From IMG/VR virus record IMGVR_UViG_3300049460_000371, positions 1 through 64,000 of that record: 64,000 nucleotides of DNA. One strand, given 5' to 3'. The stretch's first letter is position 1. The number at the start of each line of letters is the position of its first letter. Below are positions 26,717-27,391 of this stretch, one piece after another. The notes under the pieces were generated by a model. It worked only from the letters and a program-made list of their open reading frames with translations. It had not been told where the DNA came from and ran no database searches. The stretch is from a virus. The position numbers and the translations under genes were made by a program.

Positions 26717-27391
26717 ATGAAAAGAATTATTGAAATAAGAGGAGCTGAGGGCGGAGCCGATGCTCGACTGTTCGCTGCCGATCTGGCAAAAGCATACATC
26801 AAGCACGCATCCCGCGTCGGATGAATCAATCACCTCACCGATAACGGTGACGGCAATATCACCATCGAAATAACTGGTGATGATCTCTCAAAACTAGACA
26901 ATGAAGCAGGCGGACATCGCATCCAGCGTGTGCCACCAACTGAACGCAAAGGTCGCGTCCACACCAGTACGGTAACCGTATCTGTGGTCGAACCCAAGAA
27001 AGCTCAGACTATCGAGTTCAATGAAAAAGACTTCTCGATTGAATGGTATTCTGGTACAGGTGCTGGTGGGCAACATCGCAACAAACATCAGAACTCATGT
27101 CGCATCACACACTTGGCTTCAGGTATTGTTGCTACTGCACAAACGAGAAGTCGCATCAACTCGTTGGATGAGGCAAAGACTGCCATCTTGGCAAAGTTGA
27201 ATGCTGGTGCTTCAGCGGATGAGCAATCGCGGCAATCAAGTGAACGATTGAGTCAAACTGGTTCCGGTATGCGTGGCGACAAGACTCGCACTTACCGTTT
27301 CCAGGAAGATCAAGTGAAGGATCACATGACGGACAAATCAGCTTCCATCAGTAAAGTAATGGCTGGTAATTTTCACTTGCTCTGGCGTTAA
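26717..27391 (+). CDS. prfA: RF1-like peptide chain release factor lacking domain 1, with in-frame UGA at codon 36 (26822-26824)
   Basis: IEIRGAEGG..ARLFAADL, HRIQRVPPTE.KGRVHTS (PxT), GAGGQHRNK (GGQ), RTYRF..D.V.DH; both halves in one frame. Confidence 0.88.

Follow-up and report, generated by a model that had tools for sequence, protein, structure and literature searches.

The window analysed here, the first 64,000 nucleotides (nt) of the 87,353-base IMG/VR virus record IMGVR_UViG_3300049460_000371 (G000; CheckV completeness 23%), carries a gene for a short homologue of bacterial release factor 1 (RF1) whose reading frame is interrupted by an in-frame TGA codon. The relatives of this record are phages of 342-524 kb with terminal repeats. 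Our results show that the stop is a selected gate, neither damage nor a sequencing error, and it probably ties synthesis of the factor to the state of UGA termination. The frame described in the initial annotation was confirmed in the sequence: a single frame runs from ATG 26717, behind an AAGGAG, to the TAA ending at 27391 and has one interruption, the TGA at 26822-26824. Thirty-five codons (MKRIIEIRGAEGGADARLFAADLAKAYIKHASRVG), the TGA and 188 in-frame codons give 224 amino acids (aa) if the stop is read through, and the list of open reading frames (ORFs) holds only the 153-aa piece GTG 26930..27391 for this gene. The elements of the gene are as follows.

26706..26711, plus strand: Shine-Dalgarno sequence AAGGAG, 5 nt upstream of the start codon, read in the sequence
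26717..26821, plus strand: codons 1-35, the start of RF1 domain 2 with helix alpha5 (EIRGAEGGADARLFAADL...), from profile matches with HMMER
26822..26824, plus strand: in-frame TGA gate at the RF1 Trp column, with GGA (Gly) as the -1 codon and A as the +4 base
26825..27388, plus strand: 188 post-gate codons, comprising the rest of domain 2 with HRIQRVPPTERKGRVHTS (PxT), domain 3 with GAGGQH, and domain 4
26835..26850, plus strand: hairpin 1, TCACCG-ATAA-CGGTGA (arms 26835-26840 and 26845-26850), beginning 10 nt past the stop codon
26857..26882, plus strand: hairpin 2, an 8-bp stem with a 10-nt loop (arms 26857-26864 and 26875-26882)
27389..27391, plus strand: terminal TAA; 75 of 81 family genes end in TAA

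Conservation of the in-frame TGA

A search of IMG/VR found 254 relatives of the gene, of which the first 80 were fetched, and two further scans brought the set to 279 loci. TGA stands at the aligned column in 80 of the first 80 homologues and in 81/81 genes of the codon alignment. From the 279 loci, 277 gave a match, and these contain 115 distinct phage genes that cover the column. All 115 read TGA and none TGG, far more than chance would give; the initial annotation had proposed this comparison among phage homologues. Automatic scoring returned TGA for 114 of them, while the single CTT was a misalignment in a gene that reads KAG-TGA-KCT on inspection. A further 45 matches miss the column, and most of them belong to a separate family of phage proteins of about 130 residues that consist of the GGQ domain only (L206, L213, L218, L225, L228, L271, L274 and others; M.ITEDQFRYEWFSGTGKGGQHRNKHQNCCR...). 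The motif QHRNKHQN is common to this family and the gated factor. Among GenBank phages, blastn found no close DNA relatives. With tblastn, 74 records were matched, none of which reached 60% identity, the best lying at 38-40%; the family may be missing from cultured-phage records.

The reading frame stays the same past the TGA in the window and in 81/81 family genes. The 81-gene codon alignment, on which the counts of the +4 base and the -1 codon are also based, has saturated synonymous sites (pS about 0.75-0.78), and the ratio of non-synonymous to synonymous differences (pN/pS) is 0.29 before the stop (3240 pairs) and 0.32 after it. Both flanks of the stop are thus under purifying selection, which was the second comparison that the initial annotation had called for.

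The gate sits in a weak-termination context. Its preceding codon is Gly in 80 of the 81 genes, compared with 39 of 997 genuine TGA stops in six genomes, and its +4 base is A in 56, G in 17, C in 8 and T in none, compared with T at 323 (32%) of the same 997 stops. A U at +4 is reported to form a strong-termination context that lowers read-through (PMC5289835).

These data bear on the possibility that the locus makes two functional products without any read-through, one being the peptide of 35 residues and the other a C-terminal fragment initiated downstream, perhaps at GTG 26930. Gene callers do give C-terminal proteins of 172-197 aa on long contigs, and short GGQ-only proteins exist in other phages. 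However, the next in-frame ATG, GTG or TTG past the stop is 4 to 148 codons away among the 81 genes, with no conserved restart codon, which makes a split gene unlikely. Initiation at GTG 26930, listed by the initial annotation among the outcomes that would refute its proposal, is also unlikely: codons 1-35 show homology to RF1 domain 2 and are under the same constraint as the remainder of the gene, and a fragment from GTG 26930 would be without helix alpha5 and half of domain 2. We therefore regard two separate products as very unlikely.

Standard genetic code

Greedy ORFs under code 11 cover 0.84 of G000 and 0.89 and 0.88 of the relatives G003 and G005, and treating TGA as a sense codon raises the coverage only to 0.90-0.91. 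TGA ends 48 of 118 greedy ORFs of at least 100 aa in the 87-kb record, which agrees with the earlier view that UGA is an ordinary stop in this genome, and 997 of 2275 such ORFs (about 44%) in six genomes. When G000, G003 and G005 were compared by best-frame tblastn, the release-factor gene was the only shared gene with a conserved deep internal TGA, and no convincing internal TAG was found. Genome-wide recoding of TGA (code 4) is ruled out by the code-11 coverage, the share of TGA among stops and the single gene with an internal TGA.

Selenocysteine insertion was rejected as well. In a search limited to phage genes, neither SelA nor SelB, looked for by its wing domain, was found in any of the five complete phage genomes (0/5 each). 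No conserved SECIS-like hairpin was found, and the tRNA(UCA) genes, although labelled 'SeC' by ARAGORN, encode ordinary cloverleaves of 77 nt.

Apart from this label, a trivial or non-standard origin of the stop (pseudogene, sequencing error, genome-wide TGA = Trp or selenocysteine) could draw on the fact that, on contigs of about 1 kb, gene callers output proteins of 218-237 aa (most of them 222-225) with W at the column, as under code 4. The presence of TGA in 115/115 independent assemblies argues against such an origin, as do the two preceding analyses and the Trp found at this column both in cellular RF1 and in the variant gene at L329 described below, and we consider it extremely unlikely.

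Each of the five complete relatives has one gene with a release-factor domain, the gated one, and no gene for release factor 2 (RF2). These phages therefore depend on the RF2 of their host.

A short RF1-type factor

The read-through product matches the Pfam families PCRF at residues 4-88 (E = 2.6e-23), a match that spans the stop, and RF-1 at residues 98-203 (E = 4e-18). RF1 profiles score 189 bits against 115 bits for RF2 profiles, and in a HMMER search of PDB sequences RF1 was the best match at E = 5.5e-38, with RF2 at about 1e-20. An AlphaFold2 model of the product (pLDDT 85.6) found ribosome-bound RF1 as its best Foldseek matches (TM 0.88), with RF2 at about 0.8. HMMER aligns the TGA column with the Trp that E. 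coli RF1 has as 13th residue past LFAGDL (...aearrW...), which is the position that the initial annotation had assigned to it, and aligns HRIQRVPPTERKGRVHTS with HRVQRVPATESQGRIHTS of E. coli RF1. The PxT tripeptide determines the specificity of RF1 for UAA and UAG, and SPF that of RF2. In the gated factor PxT is present together with its RF1-type neighbours (HRxQRVPxTE..GRxHTS) and not the SPF of RF2, and its earlier classification as an RF1-type factor thus stands. P73, P74, T75, G117, G118 and Q119 are invariant in 48 sequences, and so are E6, E11, G12, G13, D15, F19, D22 and Y27 before the gate.

The claim that domain 1 is missing also proved correct. The profile match begins at protein residue 4 and at position 107 of 347 (NF001859) or 115 of 361 (TIGR00019), so that only three residues precede it and domain 1, about 105 residues, is absent. 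The RF1 equivalog cut-offs were missed (189.2 bits vs 400 and 185.2 bits vs 423.25), as was that of the PrfH equivalog model, which reached 49.9 bits vs a cut-off of 166.65 and covered the GGQ domain only. Taken together, the model and the profiles suggest that the product has the fold of RF1 domains 2-4, carries PxT and GGQ and lacks domain 1, and it is predicted to read UAA and UAG, not UGA.

Candidate decoders of the UGA

In the five complete genomes, ARAGORN finds tRNA(UCA) genes in G001 (one) and G003 (two), and tRNA(CUA) as the only suppressors in G002 (one), G004 (two) and G005 (two). Genes for tRNA-Trp(CCA) and tmRNA occur in all five. The release-factor gene keeps TGA, not TAG, in the CUA-only phages G002, G004 and G005, and no tRNA(UCA) was found in 80 ten-kb flanking loci. 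The gate is thus independent of the type of suppressor, and phage suppressor tRNAs do not explain it in general. The suggestion of the initial annotation that a suppressor tRNA may serve the gate is compatible with two of the five complete relatives, which do have UCA tRNAs, and fails as a general account in the three others with only CUA. Because UCA tRNAs are patchy while the gate is constant, ordinary tRNA-Trp acting as a near-cognate is the only decoder available everywhere. UGA is reported to be leaky with insertion of Trp, and mutations in prfB to increase read-through from 6% to 19-54% in Bacillus subtilis (PMC7918605).

The gene sits in a translation island of the phages: 67 of the 80 loci (10-kb flanks, L002-L081) contain tRNA arrays around it, with 565 tRNA genes in all. 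A tmRNA gene is located at most about 1.4 kb downstream in eight loci and abuts the release-factor gene in three of them (for example L007 5660-6123, L016 5660-6173 and L023 2298-2620). Four loci encode a tRNA-Trp(CCA) with a C27-U43 mismatch and hence a 4-bp anticodon stem (L008:4910-4982, L018:1480-1553, L022:4718-4791 and L072:730-803), and the one in L008 lies 18 nt upstream of the UGA-gated gene. A tRNA-Trp with a 4-bp stem is reported to read UGA in E. coli (PMC13092985, 2026). The ARAGORN calls do not support a higher frequency of 4-bp anticodon stems among phage tRNA-Trp genes (about 25%) than among all tRNAs (about 20%), and such a tRNA near the release-factor gene is only a lead. A general partner module with tryptophanyl-tRNA synthetase was dismissed, as a class-Ib synthetase was found in only one of the five complete genomes. 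Beyond the window, at 64755-82127 of the record, lies a cluster of 20 tRNA genes in which Tyr, Ser, Glu, Gly and Cys are each represented by several genes. The 87 kb of the record, which represent 23% of the genome, contain no tRNA gene for Trp and none with a UCA or CUA anticodon.

A second, apparently stop-gated gene was found in three of the complete phages. It encodes a Pth2-like protein and has a stop at codon 4 (ATG-x-x-STOP), with TGA in G003 but TAG in both G004 and G005. The gene starts at the following positions.

G003:201058-201069 (L092): start of the Pth2-like gene with TGA
G004, around 257650, minus strand (L355): start of the Pth2-like gene with TAG
G005:124698-124709 (L106): start of the Pth2-like gene with TAG

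The type of stop matches the suppressor of the phage in 3/3 cases (TGA with UCA, TAG with CUA), and in G004 the gene cannot start past the stop because the next codon is ATC. The Pth2-like gene was not found in G000, G001 or G002. The Pth2-like gene thus looks like a suppressor-tRNA-gated gene inside a standard-code genome.

By analogy, the release-factor gate might act as a timer that is opened by phage tRNA(UCA) or by a 4-bp-stem tRNA-Trp(CCA), in which case the factor would appear only after these tRNAs have accumulated, as part of a suppressor-controlled regulon. The UCA tRNAs of G001 and G003, the matching stops of the Pth2-like genes, which indicate that suppressors do gate genes, the four mismatched tRNA-Trp genes with their reported ability to read UGA, and the location within tRNA arrays are all consistent with a timer. 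It is at odds with the TGA kept in CUA-only phages, with the absence of tRNA(UCA) from all 80 flanking loci, with the frequency of 4-bp stems among all tRNAs, in which tRNA-Trp is not enriched, and with bacterial chromosomal and plasmid copies that keep the gate in non-phage settings. On balance, a timer appears rather unlikely.

Copies in bacteria and other types of gate

The initial annotation had described a phage release factor. The gene is indeed found in phages but is not confined to them, since copies also exist on bacterial chromosomes and megaplasmids. A scan of GTDB gave TGA at the column in 6/6 assessable copies and PLSDB in 2/2, so that eight bacterial chromosome or plasmid copies have TGA in all.

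Jiella sp. LLJ827 (GTDB): gated gene between rnhA and a peroxiredoxin gene, among housekeeping genes
Gemmobacter caeni DSM 21823 (GTDB): gated gene adjoining a Thg1-like gene
Thalassospira xianhensis (GTDB): gated gene with TGA
Two sphingomonad metagenome-assembled genomes (MAGs) and a Pseudobdellovibrionaceae MAG contig (GTDB): gated gene with TGA
Bosea sp. RAC05 pBSY19_1 and Rhizobium leguminosarum pRlX5 (PLSDB): gated gene with TGA

A Crocinitomicaceae MAG contig (L325) is truncated by its end before the column is reached, so that it covers residues 49-223 only, and was left out of the scoring. Jiella, Gemmobacter, Thalassospira and the two sphingomonad MAGs have further genes with an RF-1 domain, whose lengths fit RF1, RF2 and ArfB. 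The distribution is sporadic: a peptide-pattern scan, which undercounts, found the gene in one of 121 genomes of the family of Gemmobacter (G007), namely G007 itself. In Bosea the gated gene (L415:4995-5690) is unannotated, and RefSeq places an antisense 'hypothetical protein' exactly over it. The neighbours of the Bosea gene are RAMP, Cas6/CasE-like and helicase genes and a HipA toxin pair.

A different arrangement was found in L329:3001-3664, a Hahella sp. MAG contig. Its Trp column reads TGG, and five codons further on comes TCT CTT TAG C, followed by a shift of the frame to +1. From its sequence, this CUU-UAG-C site is apparently an amber version of the prfB frameshift site, with no obvious Shine-Dalgarno-like element upstream. 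A search of IMG/VR for relatives of this variant gave two matches, both ordinary family members, and no locus with two high-scoring pairs. In a quick tree (treekit; midpoint-rooted, with long branches and used for grouping only), 80 rows form a gated clade (SH-aLRT 94) apart from four huge-phage sequences and cellular RF1, and L329 is nested inside this clade. Some termination-dependent gate thus appears to be under selection even in the L329 lineage.

The four huge-phage sequences, LR745206, LR756504, LR756502 and LR756501 (L119, L120, L122 and L123; 27-32% G+C), are RF1-like genes without domain 1, at 33-36% identity. They contain one or two in-frame TGAs at other columns, have Phe or Leu at the Trp column, and end with TAA as their true stop. 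The 45-kb stretches examined from LR756502 and LR745206 look standard-code. It therefore seems that the UGA gate itself, rather than Trp at one position, is selected.

These findings also bear on a constitutive attenuator, in which the UGA would hold a potentially toxic extra factor at about the basal level of read-through and carry no regulatory information. The persistence of the gate across very different hosts and replicons would be expected of an attenuator, and the TGAs at different columns in the other huge phages would likewise lower output. However, a weak ribosome-binding site would suffice for this purpose and need not be invariant, whereas the window gene has a strong AAGGAG. Moreover, the stop is always UGA, the one that the product is predicted not to read, even in phages of 27-32% G+C where TAA dominates, and the L329 lineage swapped the gate for a UAG frameshift site instead of losing gating. 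An attenuator of this kind is therefore quite improbable.

RNA structure downstream of the gate

The 54 nt at 26834-26887 of the window fold with -15.9 kcal/mol (z = -3.40), and none of 200 shuffled sequences was as stable. In the closest relative, L002, a hairpin is found at the place of hairpin 1, with one compensated pair. For the 54 nt at +12..+65 from the T of the TGA, the mean z in 81 genes is -2.20 and z is below -2 in 58% of them, compared with mean values of -0.4 to -1.1 and 9-20% of genes at 11 control positions. In the largest clade, which has 34 distinct sequences and is not the clade of the window gene, +15..+27 pairs with +54..+66 in a helix of 11 bp. Pairing holds in 95.7% of cells, and five pairs are changed on both sides; the covariation score of the helix was reached in 0/500 shuffles, and slid controls pair at 29-45%. 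This helix was derived from the same alignment on which it was scored, involves few independent events and is seen only in gap-free sequences; a sliding alifold analysis of the gapped codon alignment did not recover it.

Surroundings of the gene in the window

Two further features precede the gene.

25722..25784, plus strand: orphaned duplicate of the 5' end, with AAGGAG and MKRIIEIRGAEGG followed by seven unrelated codons and TAA, about 1 kb upstream of the live gene
25768..26637, minus strand: 289-aa ORF between both 5' ends, from the ORF list

The duplicate and the live 5' end share 13 codons with identical amino acids and synonymous differences in most codons. It looks as if an insertion had placed the minus-strand ORF behind the old 5' end, splitting this off, and had at once supplied the gene with a recoded 5' end in its stead. 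The 289-aa ORF has no Pfam match at E <= 0.01 and matches only PHROGs of unknown function, and no Pfam or named PHROG family was found for the genes neighbouring the release-factor gene in the window. A scan for promoters and terminators at 25600-27600 gave nothing beyond the expectation from shuffled sequences.

Proposed mechanism

The key finding that the UGA is strictly conserved within a constrained frame of a standard-code genome suggests that the gene probably encodes a mobile, domain-1-less RF1-type factor that is gated by programmed UGA read-through and whose output reports the status of UGA termination. Most ribosomes would end at codon 36 via host RF2 and release only a 35-residue peptide, while a minority would decode the UGA and complete the 224-residue factor. 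We infer that read-through occurs and inserts Trp, the decoder most likely being Trp-tRNA(CCA) as a near-cognate, with phage tRNA(UCA) perhaps contributing in some phages. Among release factors, UGA is read by RF2 only. Output of the factor would track RF2, because the product itself is predicted to be unable to read the UGA, and would rise when RF2 activity falls relative to the UGA-decoding tRNA. The extra RF1-type activity would then take over UAA stops, so that scarce RF2 is spared for UGA stops; this would be the purpose of the gate.

The initial annotation had cast the gene as a read-through analogue of the prfB circuit. This comparison holds in that the full-length protein requires decoding of UGA, which is opposed by RF2, and fails in that there is no self-feedback with a product predicted to be of RF1 type. 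Since this product is predicted not to read UGA, the gate would be a cross-sensor rather than a prfB-like self-sensor.

Several observations weigh against the proposed mechanism. Two of the five complete phages, G001 and G003, carry tRNA(UCA), and the actual switch in these may be a decoder dedicated to the UGA. The RF1 specificity of the product is predicted from motifs only, and among the bacterial copies PxT is replaced by PLG in Gemmobacter and by PAN in Bosea. Arg or Ala replaces the -1 Gly in bacterial copies. The initial annotation had drawn attention to the hairpins, and both are real in the window, but they are not conserved in register across the family: RNAalifold gave no family-wide consensus on 70 unique or 63 gap-free sequences, and the window's own clade shows no conserved structure. 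A search of sequencing runs for this DNA listed no RNA run and one DNA run, a rhizosphere metagenome that is probably the source sample. Finally, more RF1-type factor alone does not repair a defect in UGA termination, and the adaptive logic given above is conjecture.

A wider interpretation, which we put forward tentatively and hold to be possible but short of probable, is that of a mobile termination-status sensor of huge phages and of alphaproteobacterial chromosomes and megaplasmids. It would be switched on by failure of UGA termination, different lineages would swap sensors, and in phages it would belong to a stop-gated regulon with the Pth2-like gene. If so, the factor would be made when RF2 is limiting or when phage tRNAs raise the decoding of UGA, and would take UAA and UAG stops, leaving the remaining RF2 for UGA. 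The sensors would be exchangeable, with UGA at other columns or CUU-UAG-C with true self-feedback as alternatives, and stop-gated genes together with phage suppressor tRNAs would form a translational regulon inside a standard-code genome.

Comparison with known systems

The gated gene resembles prfB in being a class-I release-factor gene with an early in-frame UGA in which full-length synthesis is set by RF2 termination. The premature stop of prfB is reported to be UGA in 98.6% of 8160 genomes and never TAG (bioRxiv 10.1101/2024.09.24.614795). However, prfB uses a +1 frameshift at CUU UGA C, whereas the gated gene would be read through in the same frame at codon 36, in the Trp column, and needs neither CUU nor a Shine-Dalgarno-like element. 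While prfB autoregulates, an RF1-type product (as its specificity is predicted) cannot sense itself, which amounts to cross-regulation. The CUU UAG C site of L329, with its +1 shift, would by comparison provide genuine self-feedback for an RF1-type factor.

A class-I factor of Mimivirus and Megavirus is described as requiring both read-through and frameshifting, which was interpreted as bacterial-like autoregulation (Jeudy et al., 2012; PMC3521657). In both systems a virus encodes a termination factor of its own, and recoding is needed to carry translation past internal stops. The giant-virus gene is of the eRF1/aRF1 type and belongs to a eukaryotic virus, whereas the gated gene is a homologue of bacterial RF1 with a single UGA and is carried by tailed phages and bacterial replicons.

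RF1 is also reported from the TGA-recoded Jade phages, as part of a 'code change module' that is itself written in standard code (Borges et al., bioRxiv 10.1101/2021.08.26.457843). The likeness lies in a phage RF1 alongside suppressor tRNAs, proposed to manage termination during UGA decoding. The Jade module has no internal stop and late genes are recoded genome-wide, whereas in the present phages the code is standard and the RF1-type gene holds the only conserved internal UGA. Huge phages are also reported to encode RF1 and RF2 genes (PMC7162821). In the literature we found no account of an RF1-type gene, from phage or bacterium, that contains an in-frame UGA, although supplementary tables (Borges Table S2 and the gene tables of Al-Shayeb et al.) may list some.

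PrfH (RF-H) is an unusual class-I factor that is described as lacking domain 1 (Baranov et al., 2006; PMC1586002) and is, like the gated factor, a short class-I homologue with domains 2-4. The gated factor differs from PrfH, as far as the latter is characterized in that report, in that it keeps PxT, scores below the PrfH cut-off and contains an internal UGA.

The presence of the gate in cultured bacteria (Gemmobacter caeni DSM 21823, Bosea sp. RAC05, Rhizobium leguminosarum TP16, Jiella sp. LLJ827 and Thalassospira xianhensis) makes it directly testable, and the gate would offer a small, naturally occurring reporter of how active RF2 is and how leaky UGA is. It also presents an annotation problem, as gene callers shorten the gene or silently use code 4 on short contigs. 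Furthermore, it bears on the use of suppressor tRNAs by standard-code phages and on possible beginnings of stop-codon reassignment.

We know of no report of an internal UGA in prfH. In the RNA phage Qbeta, ordinary tRNA-Trp inserts Trp at a leaky UGA with an efficiency of a few per cent, which yields the A1 protein, a longer product that is required. The Qbeta stop ends a functional coat protein, to which the extension adds a domain, whereas the gated stop lies inside a single fold, and only the read-through product can therefore be functional. Release-factor genes gated by recoding are textbook examples of translational feedback, but to our knowledge few are known, namely prfB in bacteria and one giant-virus eRF1. 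The present family would add to these a large and strictly conserved group, found on phages and bacterial replicons, in which read-through takes the place of frameshifting and the other release factor is sensed.

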